Shown one piece after another: positions 4,713 through 64,000 of a stretch of DNA of 64,000 bases (the stretch's first letter is position 1; each line of letters opens with the position of its first letter). Position numbers and translations under genes: made by a program. The stretch spans positions 122 through 64,121 of the forward strand of contig DATBWH010000051.1 of NCBI GenBank assembly GCA_036514895.1. Reading direction: 5' to 3'. The notes beneath the pieces are model-generated. The model saw only the letters and a list, made by a program, of their open reading frames with translations. It had not been told where the DNA came from and ran no database searches. The stretch comes from Candidatus Humimicrobiaceae bacterium. Its GTDB lineage: Bacteria; Actinomycetota; Humimicrobiia; Humimicrobiales; Humimicrobiaceae.

Positions 4713-4890
4713 CTAACTAATACTTAATCAATTATTGCTATATTATATATAAAAAATCATATATTTCACCATAAATCTTAAATTATTGGACCAAAAACCG
4801 CATTCTTGCCTGCATTCTTGCCTGTAAAGTCATGATTGTCTTTTTTGTATCCGCAGATAGAGTATTATCTTGAAGAATTCCCGTTGATGT

Positions 4891-5301
4891 TTAAAATAGT
4901 GCCAGGAAATGGGGTATAAATATTATCAGTCCGCCAATAAACGCAATCAAGGATGAGATCAATACTGCTCCTGCTGTAATATCTTTTATATGTTTTACAT
5001 GTATCCTGTATTCTTCGATCATCAGATCTATTATTGATTCCAAAGCTGTATTTATCATTTCCATGGAAAGTACCATACCGCTTATCAGAATAATAAATAA
5101 CCACTCGGTATTGGATATATGGAATATAAAACCTGCTATCACAGTCAAAACAAGTATCAAAAGTTGTATCCTGAAACTTCTCTGGGTAAGGGCCACTCTT
5201 GCAAAACCTCTTGCCGAATATTCGAATGATTTAAACAGGGAGTGCTTTCCATGAATCATTTGTTTTTCTAAGAAATGTTTGTTTTCCTTTCTAGACTCCA
5301 T
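4891..5301 (-). CDS. dgkA: Prokaryotic diacylglycerol kinase (DgkA family)
   Basis: A 136-aa three-TM protein with a conserved SMEMINTALESIID-like segment, 7 nt downstream of the preceding membrane-protein gene. Confidence 0.7.
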   Translation of the reverse strand: MESRKENKHFLEKQMIHGKHSLFKSFEYSARGFARVALTQRSFRIQLLILVLTVIAGFIFHISNTEWLFIILISGMVLSMEMINTALESIIDLMIEEYRIHVKHIKDITAGAVLISSLIAFIGGLIIFIPHFLALF

Positions 5302-26906: not shown

Positions 26907-27335
26907 TCAATACTCAAATTTATAGGTCTTGCAATAACCGAATCGATCATCCCATGGGTATATGACATTAGTTTTAGAAGTCGATCTGATGCTGCTGCTT
27001 TTTGTAATAAACTTGTCTATTAATACAAAATCGAGTGTCTTTTCTACAGTAACAATTACATCGTCATAGTCATAACTACATTCAACAAGAATACAATTGT
27101 TCTTTCGAGCCAATTCTTCGGCAATCATATTGCAATAAGAATCCTCAAAAAATAACAGGTTTTGTGCAACAGCAAGCGAAACGGCATCGGAAGCATTTTT
27201 TGTTTCCTCCCGTGCTATGAAAATCTGGCATAAGTCGAAAATAAGAAGAAACAAAATTGAAAATATGATTACCGCAGCCAGCGCGAAAAAAGATATATTA
27301 CCCCTATTTTGTGTATTTAAATCTTTTAGTAGCAT
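26907..27335 (-). CDS. TadE/TadG-like pseudopilin (Tad-locus minor pilin-like protein)
   Basis: The N-terminal hydrophobic segment and the TKNASDAVSLAVAQNL motif resemble the Tad/TadG N-terminal domain. It overlaps the upstream tadE. Confidence 0.5.
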   Translation of the reverse strand: MLLKDLNTQNRGNISFFALAAVIIFSILFLLIFDLCQIFIAREETKNASDAVSLAVAQNLLFFEDSYCNMIAEELARKNNCILVECSYDYDDVIVTVEKTLDFVLIDKFITKSSSIRSTSKTNVIYPWDDRFGYCKTYKFEY

Positions 27336-27784
27336 TCCATCCTCATATTACTCTTAGCTTTTATAATACTATCCTTTCCCGAAAATATTCCCTGCAAACC
27401 AGTAATATCTGCATTTTTGTATATGACAGTCACCTCAATCATATCCCCGACTTTTCTGGAAGCCCTGCTTTCCGGAGAGACTTTTATTTCAAGCATATTC
27501 TGATCCAGACCAGAACAGACTTCTTTTATGCATGCATATGCTTCCTGATCGGAATTGGTAGTAGCAATCACTCTTGCTCCTTCACGAGCTGCCTGCTCCA
27601 ATATATTTTTCTGATAGATCAGTAATCCAAAATGGGAAACAGCTAAAATTATTAAAATCAATAGAGGAATAATCAAAATAAACTCCAGTGAAGCCTGACC
27701 ATCCGGATCATGTCCTGATATCTTTGATTTATTCTTTCTTTTATTTATATCCATAATGATTTTTAACATAAAACTGTTTCCCAT
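27326..27784 (-). CDS. tadE: TadE-like pilus assembly protein
   Basis: The N-terminal G-QASLEFILIIPLLILIIL motif is characteristic of TadE/TadF. Confidence 0.7.
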   Translation of the reverse strand: MGNSFMLKIIMDINKRKNKSKISGHDPDGQASLEFILIIPLLILIILAVSHFGLLIYQKNILEQAAREGARVIATTNSDQEAYACIKEVCSGLDQNMLEIKVSPESRASRKVGDMIEVTVIYKNADITGLQGIFSGKDSIIKAKSNMRMECY

Positions 27785-28261: not shown

Positions 28262-28472
28262 TTGACATTAATAATATAATGTATTAACATTCCTATGTAA
28301 TCTGCAATTTTTAGTTTTATTGAAAATTTAAATTTTATTAGTAATAGAGGCTAAGACTTACATTTCGTTATTGGGCACTTTGAAATGTAACGAGCCAGTG
28401 GTGCAACCGGCTATTGCTTTTTTATTGGAAAAAAGTTTGCCATCTAGCCTCTATGTTAGATGGCTTTTTTTT
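28262..28472 (+). promoter_or_regulatory. Candidate cis-regulatory leader with terminator/antiterminator alternative pairing upstream of the CAP-domain gene
   Basis: A possible -35 TTGACA at 28262. A terminator hairpin GCCATCTA-GCCTCTATGT-TAGATGGC plus T8 lies at 28439-28472. The upstream segment TAGAGGCTA (28345-28353) is exactly complementary to TAGCCTCTA in the 5' arm and loop of the terminator. An additional 9-bp hairpin is TTACATTTC/GAAATGTAA. Confidence 0.45.
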
Positions 28473-28483
28473 GGGATAAAACA

Positions 28484-29221
28484 ATGAAAAACGGGATTAA
28501 AAAAATATTAATAATATCACTGATTACAGCATTATTAGCATCAGTTATCTTTTTCTTTGCTTTTACCTATCAAACTGCAAACATAAGCACCAGCTTTACA
28601 GAAACCAGTAACTACAAAGCAGAAGATTTAGGGAAAACCGGCATAGTCCAGGAAAATGTATCCGTAAAAGATAATATTGCAGATACAGCAACAATACTGG
28701 CAAAGATATCAGACAACCTTGACAAGGAGATTGACAATATACGCTCGGATTATAATGCTGAAGTTCTTGGAAGTGCCGCAGCAAGCCAGACTGCCGAGGC
28801 TGCTGCTCCGGTAGCCTCTATTGCCAACTTAAGTGATTATGAAGCAGCAGTTCTTAACCTTATCAATAATATAAGAGTATCAAATGGACTTGGTGCACTG
28901 CAGTCAAATCAAATACTGACAGATATAGCCAGATATAGATGCAGTGACATGATAAATAATTCTTACTTTTCACATTATATGGCTGACGGCAGGAACATCT
29001 TCAATATACTTGGCGAAAATGGTGTCTCTTATGTAAATGCCGGAGAAAACCTGGGACAATCCACACCTGCTTCTAATGGGACTCCCGAAGCATTCGCAAA
29101 TGCATGGATGCAAAGTTCTACCCATAAGGCAAATATCTTGAGGTCCGTATATTCCAAGATTGGAATCGGAGTAGTCGATGGTGGAGATAGAAGAGTAGTA
29201 GCAACTGTATTTATGAATTAA
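28484..29221 (+). CDS. Secreted CAP/SCP/YkwD-domain protein
   Basis: A signal-peptide-like N-terminus (MKNGIKKILIISLITALLAS) and a C-terminal CAP domain (ARYRCSDMINNSYFSHY...HKANIL...YSKIGIGV). The ORF track starts at an ATG at 28460 inside the terminator hairpin. The ATG at 28484 is the more plausible start. Confidence 0.8.
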   Translation: MKNGIKKILIISLITALLASVIFFFAFTYQTANISTSFTETSNYKAEDLGKTGIVQENVSVKDNIADTATILAKISDNLDKEIDNIRSDYNAEVLGSAAASQTAEAAAPVASIANLSDYEAAVLNLINNIRVSNGLGALQSNQILTDIARYRCSDMINNSYFSHYMADGRNIFNILGENGVSYVNAGENLGQSTPASNGTPEAFANAWMQSSTHKANILRSVYSKIGIGVVDGGDRRVVATVFMN

Positions 29222-29309: not shown

Positions 29310-30197
29310 CTAAAACTGCAAAAAATTTCCTCCCAGCGAAAATAAAAGCGGTCCGCCTACCAGGATCATAAAAGATGGCAAGATCAGAAAAACCAGCGGG
29401 AACAATGTCAATACTGTTATTCTTCTGATTTTTCTTTCAAGATTCTGATAAGCCTGGAACTTTATATGCCTGGATTTCTGTTTCAATATTTCGTTTATAG
29501 AAGAACCATACTTCTCTGCCTGGATAAGGAGAAAAATAAAACTTTTAAAATCTTCCGAAATACTCCTGTCCATAAGGTTTTTATACGCTTGAAGTTTACC
29601 GATGCCAATATCGATGTCTTTTATAAAATTAGATAGTTCAATACAAATTCTTCCCTTATACTTTTCGGCTATGATTTTCATTGCATTATAAATATTCTGC
29701 CCCGACAATGTCGCTACTGCCAGCAGATCTACTACATACGGTAAATCCCTCTCTATTTCATTTTTTCTTACTTTCTTGAAATTGCCAAGCAGCAGATTCG
29801 GAACAAAATAACCTGTCACCCCTGTGATAATACCCAATAGACCGGGACCTATCAGACTACTGCCGGATAGACTTCCCGCAGTGAAAAATAAAACAAATAA
29901 GATCACTTTATAGCCCATAAAAGTATCCAGAGTAAGGGATATTTTATTTTCATGTTCCAATAATCTTAAGAGTTCCTTATTTTCTTTTTTGACCTCGAAC
30001 CAGTGCCTGTTAATCAGAGATCTTCCAATTCTAAAAGCAATCGAATTCATTTTGTTTATAATTGCTGTAAAAAACTTTTTCTTCCCGGAATAATCTTTAT
30101 TTTTCGCGGTCCTGCGGTAACTTCTGGATTTAATAATATGAAATATAACCGAACATAGAAATATATAATACGATAATATGATTAAATATATAAACAT
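29310..30197 (-). CDS. tadC: Type II secretion system F-domain protein TadC
   Basis: A 295-aa polytopic protein with a T2SS-F-like domain. It is adjacent to tadB. Confidence 0.75.
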   Translation of the reverse strand: MFIYLIILSYYIFLCSVIFHIIKSRSYRRTAKNKDYSGKKKFFTAIINKMNSIAFRIGRSLINRHWFEVKKENKELLRLLEHENKISLTLDTFMGYKVILFVLFFTAGSLSGSSLIGPGLLGIITGVTGYFVPNLLLGNFKKVRKNEIERDLPYVVDLLAVATLSGQNIYNAMKIIAEKYKGRICIELSNFIKDIDIGIGKLQAYKNLMDRSISEDFKSFIFLLIQAEKYGSSINEILKQKSRHIKFQAYQNLERKIRRITVLTLFPLVFLILPSFMILVGGPLLFSLGGNFLQF

Positions 30198-30209
30198 ATC
30201 TAATTCCTG

Positions 30210-31091
30210 TTATTTTGGTGTACCTATTATTTTTTTCATTATAACTATTCCAGCGATTTCCATAACCCCTCCTACAAAAAGCAGAATTATCCCTATGCCG
30301 GTTGAAAAAAAATCAAGTATGGCTTTATTCATGAAGACACATAATATGATCAGCACGATAACAGGAAATAAAGAAATAATATTCCCGGAATATCTGCTCT
30401 GTAGACTCATTGTATCGGTCTGTGATTTTAATTTCAGGTTATGACGTACAGTATCGGCTATGCTGGCCAACATAGATATCAGATCTCCCCCTATTTTATT
30501 ATTTATCTTCAATGAACAAACAAGAAGGTCGACTTCCCTGCTCCCGCACTTTTGTGAAAACCTATTCAAGACTTCGTCCAGCGTAGAATTGAGTTCCAGA
30601 TCATTTACCACTTCCACAAGATAAGTATTAAGCGGGTCCTTAAACCACCCGATAGAATCTTTGAATATACTTCTTACCGTTTTTCCTGCTTTTAGCATCA
30701 TTGTCATATTGCTTATGAATTCAAGAAGCTGACCATGGAGCAAGTCTTTTCTTTTTTCTTCAAGTCCCTTTAATAAGTCCAGAATATAGATTTCCAGACA
30801 TACTCCAATAAATAAACTAAAGATAAAATTTCCGCACAATAAGTAAACAGTCAGTGTAAGGATAATAAAAATGATTATCGTAAGTATCTTTCTTCTGGTC
30901 TTATATATTTTCGTAAGAAATTTGATTACTCCGGATCTCCCGTAACTCCTGTTCTCCCTTAAGGTTCTGGCCTTCGGAACAAATATTGGAGCAATTCTTT
31001 TCAATCCTTGAAACATACATAGAATTGCCAGGATAAAGGTAAAAGAAATAATTATTTCATCCCAAATTTTCATACTCAAATTTATAATCAA
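30210..31091 (-). CDS. tadB: Type II secretion system F-domain protein TadB
   Basis: A 293-aa polytopic protein with a T2SS-F-like domain. It overlaps the cpaF stop. Confidence 0.75.
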   Translation of the reverse strand: MIINLSMKIWDEIIISFTFILAILCMFQGLKRIAPIFVPKARTLRENRSYGRSGVIKFLTKIYKTRRKILTIIIFIILTLTVYLLCGNFIFSLFIGVCLEIYILDLLKGLEEKRKDLLHGQLLEFISNMTMMLKAGKTVRSIFKDSIGWFKDPLNTYLVEVVNDLELNSTLDEVLNRFSQKCGSREVDLLVCSLKINNKIGGDLISMLASIADTVRHNLKLKSQTDTMSLQSRYSGNIISLFPVIVLIILCVFMNKAILDFFSTGIGIILLFVGGVMEIAGIVIMKKIIGTPK

Positions 31092-32349
31092 GCCCCCCGC
31101 TTTTTATTCTATTGATAAATGCCGGTACATAGCCTGTATAAACGAACTCCGTACTGCCGCCGGTGTTACTTCTTGCTTCATTATTTCCATCCTGGTATCT
31201 GAAAATATCTTTGACTTCCAGGATGGTATTACTGCCAATTGATTCATTTTTATTTATAAGCTCGCTTATTTTCAATAGCATCCTTTTGCCATTCTTTAAT
31301 TTTCCCAGATGGATTATCAAATCAATGGATGATGCTATCATCCTCCTGGCAGTTGAAGGAGTCAGATTCAGCTTTGACATCAGTATCATCGTCTCCAATC
31401 TGCTGACCAGATCTTTGGGTGAATTGGAATGAACCGTGGTCATCGAACCACTGTGACCCGTGTTCATCGCCTGAAGAACATCTACAGCTTCTGCTCCCCT
31501 GATTTCTCCCACTATGATCCTATCCGGTCTCATTCTCAAAGAGTTCCTAACCAGATCCCTGATAGTTATTTCTCCTTTTCCTTCAAGATTCGGATGCCTG
31601 CTCTCTAGCTTGATTATATGGGGTAAATTCAAATTTAATTCCAGTGTTTCCTCTATAGTGACGATTCTCTCATCGGGCGGGATGAAATTTGAGATAACAT
31701 TCAAAAATGTTGTTTTTCCTGTAGATGTAGCGCCACTGACTATTATATTCAACCTGCTCTTTACACAGATCTCAATAAAATCAGCTATTTTTTTGTTTAT
31801 ACTTCCGGATTTTTCCAGACTATCAATGTCTATTATATTTTTTTTGAATTTCCTTATGGTAACTACTATGTCGTTTACTGTTACCGGACTTAAAACTACA
31901 TTGATCCTTGACCCGTTTTTAAGCCTTGCATCCACCATAGGGGAACTCTCATCCAATCTGAGGCCGAGAGGGCTTAATATTTTATCGACCAGGTTTCTGA
32001 TATGATTATTGTCCCTGAAAATAATATTTGTTTTCCTTATTGCATCATTTTCTTCGATATAGACCTGGTCAAAATTGTTTATCATAATTTCAGTTATTTT
32101 TTTATCATTTATGAGGAAGCTGACGGGCCCGAAACCAAAGCTGTCTTCATTGATTTCTCCTGCCAGCCTGTAAATTTCTTTCTGGCTGATTATGATCTTT
32201 TTTTCGTCTGCTATTTCTTTTAAATATTTTTCGATTCTCCTGAGCCTCTCTTCAGGCAAGAATTTGTTCAAATCTTCCGCTTTGATCTTTTTTGATATCT
32301 TCTTACTTAAATAATTTAAAATATCCTTATCATTAAAGATCGAACTCAT
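31057..32349 (-). CDS. cpaF: Tad pilus secretion ATPase CpaF/TadA
   Basis: Walker A VSGATSTGKTT and a T2SS/T4SS ATPase core (IVGEIRGAEA). Length 430 aa. Confidence 0.9.
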   Translation of the reverse strand: MSSIFNDKDILNYLSKKISKKIKAEDLNKFLPEERLRRIEKYLKEIADEKKIIISQKEIYRLAGEINEDSFGFGPVSFLINDKKITEIMINNFDQVYIEENDAIRKTNIIFRDNNHIRNLVDKILSPLGLRLDESSPMVDARLKNGSRINVVLSPVTVNDIVVTIRKFKKNIIDIDSLEKSGSINKKIADFIEICVKSRLNIIVSGATSTGKTTFLNVISNFIPPDERIVTIEETLELNLNLPHIIKLESRHPNLEGKGEITIRDLVRNSLRMRPDRIIVGEIRGAEAVDVLQAMNTGHSGSMTTVHSNSPKDLVSRLETMILMSKLNLTPSTARRMIASSIDLIIHLGKLKNGKRMLLKISELINKNESIGSNTILEVKDIFRYQDGNNEARSNTGGSTEFVYTGYVPAFINRIKSGGLDYKFEYENLG

Positions 32350-33110
32350 TTATTCAAATCCTCATATATTTTTTTTGAAAAAGCAGAAATGTTACTCACA
32401 ATTCTAAGATTGTAACTAAAAATGGAATCAGGCCCTTTATTCAGCATTAAAAATTCTATATCCCTGTCATATGGAATAAAAGCATTAACCGGGTAGCTTA
32501 AAATTGTGTTTATACCTGTGAGCGAAACAGCAGGCCTTATATTGAATTTATTTATCGTTATATCAAAATCATAAGAGAATTCATCAATAATTATACTTTT
32601 GACCAGCACATTTAGATTATTTACTGAAATAAAGTCCGGCAGGGAAATAAAAATGTATTTATCGACTCTGTCTTTTAGTCTGAATTTATCCTGAGTAAAT
32701 AAATAATAAGGAAAATCCACACAGATTATATCAAAATGCTCCTTGAGAATATCCAAAAGCTTCTCAAAATATTCTTTACAAAAAATCTTATTTTTCTCGA
32801 TTTTTATGGGTGGTAATATCAGATTCAGACTGTTCTTTAAATTGATCACAAGTCTTTTTAGAATAGAGTCATCCATCTCATTCATGACTTCTTCAATATC
32901 TCCCAGGTCCCTATAACTATCATCAGTAAGATTGAAAATCAGCCTGCTGTCTCTTTTTCCTATATTTAGATCAAGCAGTAATATATTCTTTGTAGTCTCT
33001 CTGGCAAAATAAGTCGAGACGCAATAAGTCATAAAACTACAGCCGCAGCCTCCTTTGCTTCCGGTAAATAGTATGATCTTTGACTCTTCTCCATTCAGTT
33101 TATTCATCAT
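32346..33110 (-). CDS. CpaE/TadZ-like ParA/MinD-fold protein with degenerate P-loop
   Basis: The motif ILFTGSKGGCGCS sits where a deviant Walker A (KGGxGKT) is expected. Its position between cpaB and cpaF matches tadZ/cpaE. Confidence 0.6.
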   Translation of the reverse strand: MMNKLNGEESKIILFTGSKGGCGCSFMTYCVSTYFARETTKNILLLDLNIGKRDSRLIFNLTDDSYRDLGDIEEVMNEMDDSILKRLVINLKNSLNLILPPIKIEKNKIFCKEYFEKLLDILKEHFDIICVDFPYYLFTQDKFRLKDRVDKYIFISLPDFISVNNLNVLVKSIIIDEFSYDFDITINKFNIRPAVSLTGINTILSYPVNAFIPYDRDIEFLMLNKGPDSIFSYNLRIVSNISAFSKKIYEDLNK

Positions 33111-33169
33111 TTATTTCCTTTCATAATTTTGAATTAATATAATACCGATCGAAAACAAAAGTCTTTACA

Positions 33170-33916
33170 TCAAAGATTATCCCCGGGACAAACCGATATA
33201 TTTATGACTCCTCTCTCCAGCGCTAAGAACACCTCTTCAGCTTCTGTCTTGCTGAGATAAAAAGTTATTATAAGAAGGCTTTCATAATCAGAGTCGAGCC
33301 GGCTATCGGTGACCAGGGGATCTACAAGAAAGTTTCCCGTACCATTTTCATTTTTTGAATAATTATCTTCAGGACTACTGCCAATCAGTATTATTTCTTT
33401 TTCCGATATGACCGTTTTCGAAAAAAGACTGCCGCTTTCCTCCTCATAATAAGTGGATATCAAATCGATACAGTCTCCCTCCTCCAGCAGTGACTTGTCC
33501 CCATAAAAGCTAACGGGGATACTGACTGCCCTTAAGTCATTAGGAATGTATGATGAGAAATCAAGATCAAAACCGCCTTCGGAATCCATGCCTTCCAATA
33601 TATCTTCTGTAATGATCTCTCCTTTTGAAATGTCGTTTATTACTTCTTTTCCTATAATTCTATCCTTATCCATAATGAATTTTTCACTGAATACATTCCC
33701 CGTTATTTTTTGTTCTTCAATTGATTCACCTGTGATCTCGTCTCCTTTTTTAAGATCGACCCTTGCCACAAATATAGGATTATAATCAATGTTTTCCGGG
33801 ATCTTTTCTTTTAAGCCGCTTATATACCAGAAAATGATTATTCCTCCGAGAATAGCAATGATCAGAAAAATAATGCTGATTATTTTTTGTTTTACGATCA
33901 AAGATATTCTATTCAT
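33170..33916 (-). CDS. cpaB: Flp pilus assembly protein CpaB/RcpC (SAF domain)
   Basis: An N-terminal TM helix is followed by a SAF-like segment (VARVDLKKGDEITGESI). It is the first gene of the tad cluster. Confidence 0.7.
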   Translation of the reverse strand: MNRISLIVKQKIISIIFLIIAILGGIIIFWYISGLKEKIPENIDYNPIFVARVDLKKGDEITGESIEEQKITGNVFSEKFIMDKDRIIGKEVINDISKGEIITEDILEGMDSEGGFDLDFSSYIPNDLRAVSIPVSFYGDKSLLEEGDCIDLISTYYEEESGSLFSKTVISEKEIILIGSSPEDNYSKNENGTGNFLVDPLVTDSRLDSDYESLLIITFYLSKTEAEEVFLALERGVINISVCPGDNL

Positions 33917-58151: not shown

Positions 58152-59606
58152 CTATAATTTTTTTTCCTTATCGAAACTGGCGTTTATAGCCTTAAGAAAA
58201 TCATTATTTGATTTCGTATTTTTTATATAGTCTATCAACTGCTCGAGTGCCACTTCGGGTTCTTTTTCATATATCAATCTTCGAAGTTTCCAGACCGTCC
58301 TGGCTTCTTCTTTATCCATTAATAATTCTTCTTTTCTGGTTCCTGACCTGGTTATATCGATTGCAGGAAAAATTCTTTTATCGGCCAGTTTCCGGTCCAG
58401 ATTGATTTCCATATTACCGGTACCTTTGAATTCCTCGAATATAACATCGTCCATTCTGCTTCCTGTTTCGATCAATGCAGTCGCAAGTATGGTGAGGCTT
58501 CCTCCGTTTTCGATATTTCTGGCTGCTCCGAAGAACCTTTTTGGCGGGAACAATGCAGAGGAATCCACTCCGCCGGACAGAACCCTGCCGCTTGCCGGGA
58601 TCGACAAATTATATGCCCTTGCGAGCCGGGTTATACTGTCAAGGAGTATCAATACATCTTTGCCATGTTCGACCAACCTCTTTGCCCGCTGAAGAACAAG
58701 TTCGGCAACCTGAATATGGTTGTCTGACGGTTGATCGAATGTTGAACTAATTACTTCTCCTTTTACCGATCTTTCCATATCGGTTACTTCTTCAGGCCTC
58801 TCATCGATCAGCAGGACTATAATATTTACTTCGGGATTATTGGTAGAAATGCTGTTGGCAAGATCCTTTAGTATGGTTGTCTTACCCGCCTTGGGAGGAG
58901 ACACGATAAGACCCCTCTGGCCTTTCCCTATAGGTGCAATCAAATCTATTATTCTCGGAGTTATGTTATCCGATTCACTGGTCTCCATCCTTAATCTGTC
59001 CATGGGATATATTGGAGTCAACTTTTCAAATGGTATTCTGCTTCTTATGAATTCCGGATCTTCTCCGTTTACTTTTTCTATTCTGAGTAATGCATTGTAT
59101 TTTTCACTTTCTTTTGGCGGCCGGACCTGACCATATACTTCATCTCCCTGTCTCAAACGGAATCTTCTAATCTGAGACTGGGAAACATATATATCATGCG
59201 ATCCGGCAAGATATCCGGTCGTCCTCAGGAAACCATAACCATCCGCCAGTATATCGAGTATACCTTTCATTCTTTCCTTATATAAGTCAAATTCCGGTTT
59301 TTTCTCGATGTCTCTCTTTCTTTTTTCACCCTTCTCTTCTTCAATCATCTCTTCTTCTATTATTTCTTCTTCGACGGGTTCTTCCTTTTTCTCTTCCAAA
59401 ACCGCAACCTCTTCCCCTGTCATGGGTTCATTCTTAAACGAAGGTTCCATACCATTATTGGGTATTTCCTCCAGTATTTTATCCACAAGTTCGTCTCTCT
59501 TTAATTTAGAAATTCCCTGAATATTTAATTGCCTGGCTATGACTCTTAAGTCAGATAAAACCTTCTTATCAAGAAATTCCCTGTTTAATTCTTCTAATTC
59601 AGCCAT
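58152..59606 (-). CDS. rho: Transcription termination factor Rho (with N-terminal insertion)
   Basis: An acidic N-terminal insertion, then an OB/RNA-binding region, Walker A ([17 protein letters not shown]) and the C-terminal ATPase domain. Confidence 0.95.
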
Positions 59607-60094
59607 TAATAAATGCTCCTTTCATGCTTAGGGCCTCTTCTTTATTCAAATATTTGTAACTCCTCTTAATTGTTTATTTTTATCATTCAAAAGATTTTGA
59701 TGATTTAGTATCATAATAGATTATTCCTGAACCGTTATTTTAAGGTCCTGAAATTTATTAATGATATCTTCAAACTTTCAAATATATTTTAAAAAGGATT
59801 TTTGATTTACGTTAGGACAATAGACTGCTTTTATAAATATATGCTTATAAACTAATATCTTTTGAAATTTGAGACATGATTATTTTGGAGAAACCCCTAT
59901 ACCAATGTCGTTATTAATACAAATGAAATTTTCCTTTATAATATATAGACTAAATAGGAAAAAATCAAGTAGAAATTTTTAGTATGTAGAAATACTCTTT
60001 GTCTCCTGGCAGATTAAAAGGTTAAACTTACATTCTTTTATAATGGTGGAAGGACTAAAATATTTTAGCCTTCCACCATTAAATTAGTTACTCC

Positions 60095-61462
60095 CTATAC
60101 TTTTGGAAGTTTTTCCAGGGATTCTTTTATCTTTTCTGTAGGATATTCGTAATCTTCAAGATTCCCATCCAGATAACTATCATATGCTCCAAGATCGAAA
60201 TGCCCGTGCCCGCTGAAATTAAAGGCTATGACTTTCTCTTCTCCGGTTTCCTTGCATTTCATGGCTTCATCTATAGCTGCCTTTATTGCATGTGCTGTTT
60301 CAGGAGCCGGGATGATTCCTTCTGTCCTGGCAAAGGTAACAGCTGCTTCAAACACAGGATTCTGGTGAAGTGCAATTGCCTCAATGACCTTCTCGTGGTA
60401 AAGCAAACTTACCTGGGGTGCCATGCCGTGGTATCTAAGTCCTCCCGCATGTATTCCGGCGGGAATAAAATCATGACCCAGAGTATACATTTTTGCTATA
60501 GGACCTGTTTTTGCAGTATCACCATAATCATAAGCAAATGGACCCTTGGTCAATGATGGGCAGGCAATGGGCTCAACGGCTATGATCCTGATTTTTTTGC
60601 CGCTCAATTTATCGGGTATAAATGGAAAAGCAAATCCGCCGAAGTTACTGCCGCCGCCAACACAACCGATTAATATATCGGGATATTCGCCCAGTTTTTC
60701 AAACTGCTTTTTAGTTTCAAGTCCTACAATCGATTGATGAAGGATTACATGATTCAGCACACTGCCGAGTGAATATTTTGCATCTCCGCCGCTTTTAACC
60801 GCATCTTCTACAGCTTCGCTTATAGCTATACCCAGACTTCCGGGAGAATTGGGATCCTGAGCCAGTATATTCTTACCGGCATCCGTCAAATTTGAAGGAG
60901 AAGGATGAACAGTTGCGCCCCACAGATTCATCATGCTTTTCCTGTATGGTTTTTGATCATAGCTTACCCTGACCATATAAACCGTACAACCTAATCCAAA
61001 AAGATTGCATGCGAATGCAAGTGCGCTTCCCCATTGTCCCGCACCAGTTTCGGTAGCAAGTCTTTTTACTCCTTCTTTTTTATTATAATAGGCCTGAGCC
61101 AAGGCGGTATTAGGTTTATGGCTCCCTGCAGGGCTGACGCTCTCATTTTTAAAATATATTCTGGCCGGTGTATCAAGATATTTTTCTAATCTTTCAGCTC
61201 TTACAAGAGGCGTCGGCCTCCACATTCTATAAATATTTACAAGCTCTTCAGGAATATCGATAAATCGATCCATGCTTACTTCCTGCATGATAAGTGACAT
61301 TGGAAACAAGATCGAAAGATCATCCGGTGTCAGAGGTTTACAGGTCTGCGGATGCAAAGGCGGGTCCAGAGGTTTTGGCAGATCAGGATTTATATTGTAC
61401 CATTGTCTCGGCATTTCCTTTTCTGTGAGTAATGTTTTTTTATCTTTTTCATTTTGATCCAT
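60095..61462 (-). CDS. trpB: Tryptophan synthase beta-chain paralog, TrpB2 type
   Basis: A 455-aa long-form TrpB with the PLP lysine region ([15 protein letters not shown]) and GGGSNFGG motifs. No trpA is adjacent. Confidence 0.9.
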
Positions 61463-61905
61463 TTATGTTCTCCTCTCTTTATTTTTATAATTTCCTGACA
61501 ACAATTTCAAAATTTCTTTATTGGTATTTTTCTTAACTTCGCCATAATAAAATTTTTATTTTCATCACCTTTCCTTTCCATAAACAAAAAACCTCTCCAT
61601 CACTACATAATATTGTAGAGACGAGAGGTTTAATTCCCGCGGTGCCACCCTACTTTGCCCTAAAATCAATATAATTATTGATTCCGGAACACACTTAAAA
61701 TATTTCAGATACTTTAAATACCCTATCCTCTGGTAACGGAGGAAGCCGGCCTGACTTACTCTCTAATAAAAGATTTGAGCCAGACACCTCACAGACCCAT
61801 TCAGACACCAGCTTAGCAACCGCATTCTCAGCTTCAGCGGCTCTCTGTATGCTGCATTCAGTGCTTACTATCTCTGGTCACAGGTTTTGTTGGAAATATT
61901 TAATT
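61463..61905 (-). promoter_or_regulatory. T-box riboswitch leader upstream of trpB2
   Basis: The minus-strand RNA contains AAAGUAGGGUGGCACCGCGGG (T-box consensus AAnnnGGGUGGnACCGCG; plus-strand 61636-61655). A terminator follows directly, with an AACCUCUC/GAGAGGUU stem plus U6 (plus-strand 61585-61630). Confidence 0.65.
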
Positions 61906-61976
61906 TTCAAATAAGCTATTTAATATCAGGTTATGAATACTAGCATAATTCTATAACTTTGTCTAATTCTCAGGAC

Positions 61977-62678
61977 CTATTTATTCTTTATGATTATTGG
62001 ACTTCTTACTTCTCTTTTTAGAGCCATTTCATCAAGTCCGGCCTGGCTTTCAGCAAAATCGATAACAAGGCTTTTTAAGTCCAGCCTTAAAAGGGGAAAA
62101 AGAGGATCGTTCTTTTTTAAATAAAACCCGTTATTTATAAGAAATTTAAACGGAATCAGCGGGCTATCCCAGTACATATCTTCATCTATATCATCATTTA
62201 GTCTTTTGCCTATTGATTCTATGGATTTTGCTTTTTCTTTTATCAATTCTTTTTCTATCTCGATGAGCAGTCTTTTACCTATCCCCATACCTCTGTACCG
62301 GGAAATGACATGGATGCAGCCTAAAAAAGTACTGTCGGGATCGGGCGGATATACATTAAAACTCCGTAGTCTTGGAAAGAGATAATAATTTCCAGCCATT
62401 ATAATCCCTATACACTGCCCTCCGATAAAAGCAGCTTTGATTTTTCCTCCATATTCATTAAAAGCAGCGATTTTTTTTCTATTATTTTTCCTGACGCTTT
62501 TCTCAAATAACTTACCTTTAAGAAATCCTGTCAGTTCACTAATGCTTCTCACTGCAAATAAATCCTTAAAAAAAATTATCCTGCCACGATCAAACCAATA
62601 ACTGCAATCCAGGCATTTTAAATCTATTTTCTCCCGTTTTTTAGGAGATAGATCTTTGATTGTCAAATTCAAATCCAT
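61977..62678 (-). CDS. GNAT-family N-acetyltransferase
   Basis: The acetyl-CoA binding motif RGMGIGKRLL in a 233-aa ORF. Confidence 0.65.
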   Translation of the reverse strand: MDLNLTIKDLSPKKREKIDLKCLDCSYWFDRGRIIFFKDLFAVRSISELTGFLKGKLFEKSVRKNNRKKIAAFNEYGGKIKAAFIGGQCIGIIMAGNYYLFPRLRSFNVYPPDPDSTFLGCIHVISRYRGMGIGKRLLIEIEKELIKEKAKSIESIGKRLNDDIDEDMYWDSPLIPFKFLINNGFYLKKNDPLFPLLRLDLKSLVIDFAESQAGLDEMALKREVRSPIIIKNK

Positions 62679-62836
62679 GTTTAAAAAAGAAAAAACATTA
62701 AATCTTATGCTTTCATAATTATAACACTATGAAGAATTGTTTGAACTTTCAAAATCTCTTTTGAACTTTTGGAGTTTTTAATATATATTACTTATTTACA
62801 AACATTAAGAGCATCAAGACACCTCCTGGACCGGTT

Positions 62837-64000
62837 ATGAGTAAAAAAATTACATTCGATTATTGGAAACATCTATATTCGAATAGAACCGAATATATGT
62901 TTTCCTCTGAAATAAGGGATCTGCTTTCACTCTCGGCAAGACCGGATATAATCTCTTTTTCGGGGGGTCTTCCCGAAGTAAGGGCTCTAAACTTTCAAAG
63001 ATTAGAGAGATATGTCAAAAGAATCCTTAAAACAAATGGGGACATAAGCCTGCAATATGGCGAGTCTGAAGGATATTATCCGCTTAAAACCAAATTAATC
63101 GAAGTAATGAAACTGGAGGGTCTGGATACAGTAGAAGAAGATATAATAACCACAACAGGTGGGCAGCAGGCACTGGACCTATTGGCTAAAATTTTCATCG
63201 ATCCCGGTGATATTATAATCACGGAATCACCGGCATATACGGGAGCATTAAACTCATTCAGGTCATATGAGGCAAAAATAATCGGCATACCCCTGGATAA
63301 AGATGGAATTGACATCTCTATCCTGGAGAAGAAGTTAAAAGAGCTGGGAGATAAAAAAGCCAGAATAAAATTCATATATCTTGTACCTAATTTTTCCAAT
63401 CCTTCCGGAGTGACTTTGAGTCTACAGCGCAGAAAAAAGGTTCTGGAACTTGCCAAAAAATACAATATTATGATTCTTGAGGACAATCCTTACGGAATGC
63501 TTCGATATAAAGACAAACCTATCCCTACAATAAAGGAACTTGATAGTAAAGGCGATGACCATAATGTGATTTACATAAGCACGCTGTCAAAACTTTTTGC
63601 TCCGGGATTCAGAATAGGATGGATCGTGGCTCCACATCCCATACTGGAAAAAATAATACTGGGAGTTCAATCCAGCATACTATGTGTGAGCACCTTTTCG
63701 CAAAGAATTGCTTACGAGTACTTTTCGGACCCATCATGGAGAGATAATATAGATGAATTCATAAAAATATACGCAAAGCGAAAAGATGCTATGATCAAAA
63801 CTCTGGAAGAAAGTTTTCCGGAAGGAACCAGTTGGTCAACACCGAAAGGAGGCTTCTTCGTCTGGTTAAAACTTCCTCATTATCTGAATACCAAAGAAAT
63901 TCTGGCTGATGCTGTCAGAAATAATGTTGCCTATGTTCCGGGAAGCGCCTTTTATGCTGACGACAGGGGAATCAATGAGGCCAGGTTAGCATTTTGCACA
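62837..64000 (+). CDS. PLP-dependent aminotransferase, class I/II fold (partial, runs off window end)
   Basis: An open frame from the ATG at 62837 to the window end. It contains the NPSG and STLSKLFAPGFRIGW (PLP-lysine) motifs. It is absent from the ORF track because no stop codon falls inside the window. Confidence 0.8.
   Translation, partial: MSKKITFDYWKHLYSNRTEYMFSSEIRDLLSLSARPDIISFSGGLPEVRALNFQRLERYVKRILKTNGDISLQYGESEGYYPLKTKLIEVMKLEGLDTVEEDIITTTGGQQALDLLAKIFIDPGDIIITESPAYTGALNSFRSYEAKIIGIPLDKDGIDISILEKKLKELGDKKARIKFIYLVPNFSNPSGVTLSLQRRKKVLELAKKYNIMILEDNPYGMLRYKDKPIPTIKELDSKGDDHNVIYISTLSKLFAPGFRIGWIVAPHPILEKIILGVQSSILCVSTFSQRIAYEYFSDPSWRDNIDEFIKIYAKRKDAMIKTLEESFPEGTSWSTPKGGFFVWLKLPHYLNTKEILADAVRNNVAYVPGSAFYADDRGINEARLAFCT

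Follow-up and report, generated by a model that had tools for sequence, protein, structure and literature searches.

A predicted tRNA-Trp T-box riboswitch ahead of a stand-alone trpB2 gene in a Candidatus Humimicrobiaceae genome

We analyzed a 64,000-nucleotide stretch of contig DATBWH010000051.1 (positions 122 to 64,121, assembly GCA_036514895.1, Candidatus Humimicrobiaceae bacterium), referred to below as the window. On its minus strand, a T-box leader lies directly upstream of trpB2, a gene for a paralogue of the tryptophan synthase beta chain. Because the covariance model, the anatomy of the leader and the comparative data agree, we predict from sequence, with a probability of about 90%, that the leader is a canonical class I (transcription-terminating) T-box specific for tRNA-Trp and that it controls a monocistronic trpB2.

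Applied to the entire window at its curated thresholds, Rfam yielded four matches, one of which was the T-box leader model RF00230 at 61890..61614 on the minus strand (106.3 bits against a gathering score of 93; E = 1.9e-22 for the 64-kb window). The alignment spans the complete model (positions 1-219 of 219), and all of the named T-box modules are present, in order, in the Rfam alignment and by folding (Table 1). The first-pass annotation of this DNA, which was made from the sequence alone, had noted a near-consensus T-box sequence ahead of trpB2. The string that it quoted, AGUAGGGUGGCACCGCGGG, was found within 61655-61635 on the minus strand, and the model score bears out its reading. A permissive Rfam scan of 59400-62900 returned no match at E ≤ 1 besides RF00230. 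This covers the intervals between terminator and start codon and between trpB2 and rho, in which a second regulatory RNA was looked for. A tandem T-box was also looked for in the Rfam scan, and a single T-box is present.

The base of Stem I is formed by a CC/GG helix with a GA (K-turn-like) motif, UGUGA...UGA, followed by the helix CAGA/UCUG. The specifier loop reads AUAGUAA on its 5′ side (S-turn AGUA...GAA) and GAA-UGG-G on its 3′ side, and two more helices lie beyond it. The AG bulge is ACAGAGAG (61848-61841) and the distal loop GAAGCUGAGAA (within 61837-61823). In related sequences AGAGAG of the distal platform is invariant, and nearly all of them have a distal loop of the form G(C/G)UG(A/G)GA. 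The codon UGG stands at the specifier columns of RF00230, and in that alignment the helix UCUG/CAGA begins right after the trailing purine, G 61796.

Loci from a genome collection and a metagenome collection (described below) were pooled, which gave 31 distinct Stem I sequences. All 31 of these leaders have UGG as specifier, with G or A following it. Thermodynamic folds of an isolated Stem I were uninformative (z −0.16) and RNAalifold mispaired two specifier bases, so covariation was counted on the Rfam-derived structure in place of thermodynamic folds. On that structure 96.1% of cells are paired, compared with 27-45% in slid-partner controls. Both sides have changed in 12 of the 20 pairs, and the observed values were reached in none of 500 shuffles. 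At the closing pair of the specifier loop, 19 distinct sequences have A-U and 12 have G-C. This covariation fixes the register of the loop and makes the G or A at 61796 the last unpaired base.

The first-pass annotation had offered two UGG candidates in the Stem I region, AUGGG and CUGGU, and held that neither was followed by the usual purine. The former is the one at the specifier columns, and the stated objection falls away because the G after its UGG is itself a purine. The latter (61811-61807) was rejected as a specifier, given that it falls within the 3′ strand of one of the Stem I helices, with GGUG-CU pairing to AGCACU. As this helix shows compensatory changes in relatives, CUGGU is structural and not a second specifier. 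A codon other than UGG, which would have pointed to a different tRNA, was seen at the codon columns in none of the 31 leaders.

Downstream of Stem I, the loop UCCU of Stem IIA/B is able to pair with a downstream AGGA to form a pseudoknot, and the fold pairs UCCUC with GAGGA. Loop and partner have changed together, from UCCU/AGGA to UCCC/GGGA, in two relatives (L005 and L096). The variable insert ahead of Stem III also occurs in relatives, with other sequence and length. The arrangement of bases around Stem III agrees with the RRRNG-Stem III-AA motif described for T-boxes (PMC7778990).

The antiterminator folds at −11.5 kcal/mol with a 7-nt bulge. It includes the conserved 14-nt T-box sequence, AGGGUGGCACCGCG, and the bulge opens with UGGN, as UGGC (61647-61644), the predicted pairing site for the tRNA 3′ end. 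The C of UGGC allows Watson-Crick pairing to a G discriminator base; tRNA-Trp is reported to have G there, and Trp T-boxes to have C or U (46% U, wobble) at the matching position (PMC7778990). In the Dehalococcoidales locus L071 the bulge is UGGU.

The terminator hairpin has a folding energy of −20.4 kcal/mol (z −5.03, with none of 200 shuffles equally stable), its outer part being AAACCUCUC/GAGAGGUUU. All of the relatives have an equivalent hairpin and U-tract. The 5′ strand of the terminator overlaps the 3′ strand of the antiterminator at 61626-61615, and as this strand is common to both hairpins they are mutually exclusive. The intrinsic terminator and U-tract proposed earlier are thus present, but the stem is an interrupted hairpin of 17 pairs and not the 8-bp all-GC stem that had been described. 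A simple terminator scan found nothing at the leader because its loop limit misses an interrupted hairpin; direct folding recovered the terminator.

The linkage of leader and gene is conserved in relatives. A genome collection was scanned with the TrpB2 protein and the best 80 loci were taken, eight of which have the T-box core motif. RF00230 is above threshold in six, and the remaining two (L055 and L059) match the core motif with RF00230 below threshold. In all six the T-box lies directly upstream of trpB2 and reads GAA-UGG-G/A. Five of them (L001-L005), in metagenome-assembled genomes (MAGs) labelled Actinomycetota or “uncultured bacterium,” have a TrpB2 77-81% identical to that of the window. 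The sixth (L071) is from a Dehalococcoidales MAG, with GAA-UGG-A directly before a TrpB2 that is 66% identical. No T-box was found at the remaining scanned TrpB2 loci, including those in Clostridia and Bacillota MAGs. Its absence from most of the 80 loci indicates that the link occurs in certain lineages only and is no general property of TrpB2.

The metagenome collection was searched by exact antiterminator sequence, with Stem I and the downstream gene left unconstrained, and 36 loci were recovered. A TrpB2 homologue (65-93% identity) is encoded behind the leader in 31 of the 31 loci that have at least 216 nt of downstream DNA. The five other loci have 175 nt or less.

By analogy with the established mechanism of the T-box family, the leader would work as follows. 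Transcription would begin about 45 nt ahead of Stem I. Through its anticodon CCA, tRNA-Trp would pair with the UGG codon (61799-61797) of the specifier loop, and its elbow would dock where AG bulge and distal loop together make up a platform. An uncharged tRNA has a free 3′ end (G73-C-C-A), which is expected to pair with UGGC and stabilize the weak antiterminator, so that polymerase would read through into trpB2. On a charged tRNA the amino acid would block this pairing, and the far more stable terminator with its U-tract would form and stop transcription before trpB2. TrpB2 would then be made only when charging of tRNA-Trp drops. The enzyme, a stand-alone tryptophan synthase beta paralogue, would make tryptophan from free indole. 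Induction upon tRNA-Trp starvation fits such a tryptophan-producing, indole-salvaging role. That control of a lone trpB2 by a T-box implies sensing of tRNA-Trp had been argued from the sequence, and the UGG specifier, the UGGC bulge and the linkage to trpB2 favor it.

The product of the regulated gene scores 748 bits against NF009057 (cut-off 366) and 683 bits against TIGR01415 (cut-off 519), compared with 161 bits against the canonical trpB model TIGR00263, under its cut-off of 392. This agrees with the first-pass annotation, which had called it a TrpB2 paralogue. In a search of the PDB the top three entries were 6hul, 4qys and 6hte (431-480 bits), and canonical beta chains scored 152 bits or less. 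The search output names no organism for these three entries, which we take to be TrpB2 of Sulfolobus solfataricus. The PLP-lysine motif (PLP, pyridoxal 5′-phosphate) and the GGGSNF motif are intact in the translation. Exact copies of the protein are present in the JGI metagenomes 3300025314, 3300025146 and 3300037484 and in ENA ERZ27254864. TrpB2 enzymes are described as having high indole affinity and using O-phospho-L-serine (Hettwer and Sterner, 2002; Busch, 2014; both as cited in PMC11917138). By analogy, the enzyme of the window would make tryptophan from indole with O-phospho-L-serine.

Comparison with the closest syntenic relatives (L095, L100 and L088) revealed a replacement behind the leader. 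Their Rho (93-96%), ThyX (95-96%) and aminotransferase (93-96%) are nearly the same as those of the window, yet their TrpB2 is just 67% identical. At the nucleotide level, window and L095 share 85-97% identity in the flanks and 97% in the T-box, as against 57-72% in trpB2. The breakpoints relative to L095 are sharp, one at ~61537 (roughly 50 nt past the terminator) and the other at ~59985 (just past the 3′ hairpin), with 59986-61536 of the window (minus strand) compared with 4060-5700 of L095. Given the sharp breakpoints, the diverged trpB2 and the more similar flanks, we infer that a block of ~1.55 kb, comprising ribosome-binding site, coding sequence and 3′ hairpin, was replaced behind an unchanged riboswitch. 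Across ~40 loci, two TrpB2 types alternate behind the same T-box. All of the relatives with a full-length Rho at least 83% identical to that of the window (L095, L088, L100, L112, L099 and L116) carry the other allele, which suggests that the lineage of the window was the recipient. This is a small and clean example of a regulated gene exchanged with its RNA switch kept.

The alternation of two types that are 67% identical behind one leader could also be cited for a different reading, in which TrpB2 does not serve tryptophan supply. It would act as a serine or phosphoserine deaminase or on another indole-like substrate, and the link to the T-box would be incidental or serve some other purpose related to tryptophan. 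A second function of TrpB2 has been proposed and is still debated, and Pyrococcus horikoshii keeps trpB2 with all other trp genes lost (PMC1854888). However, tested TrpB2 enzymes have poor serine deaminase activity (PMC1854888), characterized ones are tryptophan synthases (PMC11917138), and the catalytic motifs of the protein in the window are intact. Moreover, a T-box that turns a gene on with uncharged tRNA-Trp is sensible only if the product raises tryptophan. We consider this reading very unlikely.

It is extremely unlikely that the T-box is real but read in a neighboring frame, as AUG (tRNA-Met) or GGR (tRNA-Gly) in place of UGG. The five loop bases AUGG(G/A) do contain AUG in every sequence, GGG and GGA are both glycine codons, and in this subfamily GAA is not followed by the usual spacer. 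In addition, TBDB also weighs the −1 and +1 frames (PMC7778990). The standard frame, however, takes the three bases ahead of the last unpaired loop base, and since the closing pair covaries that base is 61796, giving UGG and neither AUG nor GGR. The GGR frame would leave no trailing purine. The bulge UGGC demands a G discriminator, and elongator tRNA-Met has A73 and tRNA-Gly U73. The regulated gene, lastly, encodes a predicted tryptophan-synthesizing enzyme.

That the element is a decaying relic, or acts on translation instead of on transcription termination, as do the ileS T-boxes of actinobacteria (Sherwood, 2015, as cited in PMC7778990) in a phylum whose label, Actinomycetota, the nearest MAGs also bear, is highly implausible: the full-length Stem I with its distal platform is typical of the transcriptional class, the strong terminator with its U-tract overlaps the antiterminator, the ribosome-binding site lies ~110 nt past the terminator and is no part of the switch, and the compensatory changes among 31 leaders, with 97% leader identity to L095 beside a diverged trpB2, point to purifying selection.

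Some observations count against a canonical Trp-specific T-box. In this subfamily the codon follows GAA directly, without the spacer nucleotide of the Rfam consensus. Stem IIA is mismatched in two of the relatives (L098 and L120), in which CAG...CCA replaces CGG...CCG and breaks two of the three pairs; the remainder of the T-box is intact in both. A tRNA-Trp gene was not found in the window, where only tRNA-Pro(CGG) and tRNA-Met were detected, nor in 36 loci (35 of the lineage plus L071), where only tRNA-Arg(CCT) and tRNA-Met were. Finally, the 36 metagenome loci are closely related rather than independent, and as they were picked by exact antiterminator match they provide no covariation evidence for the antiterminator helix.

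Like the class I leaders of Bacillus subtilis tyrS, glyQS and trpS (RF00230), the leader in the window runs from a Stem I that contains K-turn, specifier loop, AG bulge and distal loop through Stem II, the IIA/B pseudoknot with F-box and Stem III to the T-box sequence with its UGGN bulge and the competing antiterminator and terminator. It differs in having no spacer between GAA and the codon, an extra insert of ~30 nt between pseudoknot and Stem III, and a long Stem III. These deviations fall inside the known variability of the family. The actinobacterial ileS T-boxes (class II) share with it the family, acceptor-end sensing and possibly, if the MAG labels are right, the phylum. Their Stem I is truncated, and they sequester the ribosome-binding site (PMC7778990), in contrast to the full Stem I and intrinsic terminator seen here.

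The gene context has precedents. In two Dehalococcoides genomes, T-boxes were reported upstream of trpE and of a “trpB-like” gene (Wels et al., 2008, PMC2494555); we reproduced the Dehalococcoidales case in the present analysis (L071). RegPrecise lists a T-box assigned to Trp before a lone trpB2 in Streptococcus gordonii, S. sanguinis, Clostridium bartlettii, C. leptum, Clostridium sp. L2-50, C. phytofermentans and C. nexile, and before a lone trpB in Chloroflexus and Roseiflexus (Sun et al., 2013, PMC3766115, Additional file 2). As in the window, a single Trp-assigned T-box precedes a stand-alone trpB paralogue in these cases, and those reports are computational too. The published “trpB2” genes are matched to that of the window by name. 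The host of the window differs in being uncultured, with 36.8% G+C and nearest MAGs labelled Actinomycetota. Full-text searches found no paper dedicated to a T-box with trpB2; the precedents are a results paragraph and a supplementary table.

The TrpB2 proteins of Thermotoga maritima and Sulfolobus solfataricus belong to the same protein family as that of the window. For the characterized TrpB2 examples we found no T-box regulation, unlike the trpB2 described here. As in the TrpB2_o group (PMC1854888), the gene stands apart from any trp operon.

The promoter candidate has 9 of 12 consensus matches and a TG before the −10 box in a consensus scan, and would be the site of transcription start. 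Four more distant relatives (L098, L106, L114 and L120) have the same TATGCTA(A/G)TAT box with a TATACA −35 at the corresponding position. The same four keep a stretch, UUUGAAAAYUAAAUAU, between promoter and Stem I (window 61893-61965, minus strand). Their leaders otherwise differ, yet share this stretch and the extended −10 box.

At the other end of the unit, the hairpin behind trpB2 probably marks the 3′ end of its transcript. It has a U-tract on neither strand and may be a terminator without U-tail. L095 carries a different hairpin at the corresponding place.

Upstream of the leader are a GNAT acetyltransferase gene (61977-62678, minus strand) and a divergent class I/II aminotransferase gene (from 62837, plus strand). 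Downstream of trpB2 are rho, rpmE, thyX, a gene for a DUF1385 protein, prfA and prmC. The order GNAT - T-box - trpB2 - rho is kept in relatives. Pfam scans of 50 open reading frames (ORFs) across the window detected no other trp gene; they gave purine and folate genes, ftsH, hpt, tilS, prfA, prmC, thyX, rho, Tad pilus genes and others. No further trp gene occurs in the additional 10 kb that L081 covers, either. The description of trpB2 as stand-alone therefore holds: the window has no other trp gene, and trpB2 has its own 3′ hairpin, followed by rho.

Table 1. Features of the T-box-trpB2 unit; coordinates are positions in the window.
Feature	Position	Strand	Details and basis
Candidate sigma-70-type promoter	61937..61965	-	-35 TAGACA 61965-61960, 17-nt spacer, extended -10 TGnTAGTAT 61945-61937
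T-box leader, full-length RF00230	61614..61890	-	Rfam match
Stem I	61787..61884	-	Rfam alignment
Specifier codon UGG (61799-61797) and trailing unpaired purine G (61796)	61796..61799	-	RF00230 specifier columns
Stem II	61784-61750	-	Contains purine run AGAGAGUA; Rfam alignment
Stem IIA/B with F-box CCGUUA	61749-61726	-	Rfam alignment
Variable insert, pseudoknot to Stem III, small hairpin possible	61693..61725	-	Insertion in Rfam model
Stem III	61656..61691	-	AAGUG (fits RRRNG) before, AA after; Rfam alignment and fold
Antiterminator	61615..61653	-	GUAGGG (UGGCACC bulge 61647-61641) GCGGGA ... UCUCGU CUCUAC; Rfam alignment
Intrinsic terminator	61582..61631	-	Hairpin 61631-61589, then U-tract UUUUUUGUUU; fold
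Post-terminator spacer with ribosome-binding site	61463..61581	-	AGAGAGGAGAA (61478-61468); read from sequence
trpB2, TrpB-like PLP enzyme, 455 aa	60095..61462	-	NF009057, TIGR01415
Strong hairpin, no U-tract	60042..60080	-	15 nt past trpB2 stop; -25.0 kcal/mol, z -6.09, 0/200 shuffles

Several other features were noted in the window and its relatives. Rho (58152-59606, minus strand; 484 aa) has an acidic, lysine-rich N-terminal insertion of ~70 aa relative to family profiles of 413-415 positions, and an AT-rich leader of ~430 nt (59607-60041), with no Rfam match, precedes the gene. A c-di-GMP-II riboswitch (RF01786; 73.5 bits against 53.5) at 28337-28421 on the plus strand precedes an ORF for a CAP-domain protein (cysteine-rich secretory protein family; 28460-29221). 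It is located between TadE-like genes (26907-27784) and Tad/type II secretion genes (29310-33916). Past the aminotransferase gene and the right end of the window, L081, which encodes an identical TrpB2, has a D-Ala-D-Ala ligase gene, a tRNA-Arg(CCT) gene and a PemK-type toxin gene with a small upstream ORF (4722-5281 and 6253-6329 in L081 coordinates).

The leader belongs to a known riboswitch class, of which it is an ordinary and well-conserved example, and its gene context has already been catalogued; what is new is the host lineage. For annotation, the analysis fixes the strand, the Trp specifier and the expected regulatory logic of a gene that pipelines call “TrpB-like PLP enzyme.” Tentatively, and with the odds against it, we can picture TrpB2 behind its T-box as the main or only route of this lineage to tryptophan, by scavenging of community indole and not by topping up a full trp pathway. 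The unit may also be a fixed regulatory “socket” for recombining divergent trpB2 alleles, which might differ in substrate use. As the gene would be switched on exactly when tRNA-Trp is uncharged, the finding adds independent support for a role of TrpB2 in tryptophan supply, an argument that could already be drawn from the earlier T-box catalogues of Dehalococcoides, clostridia and streptococci.

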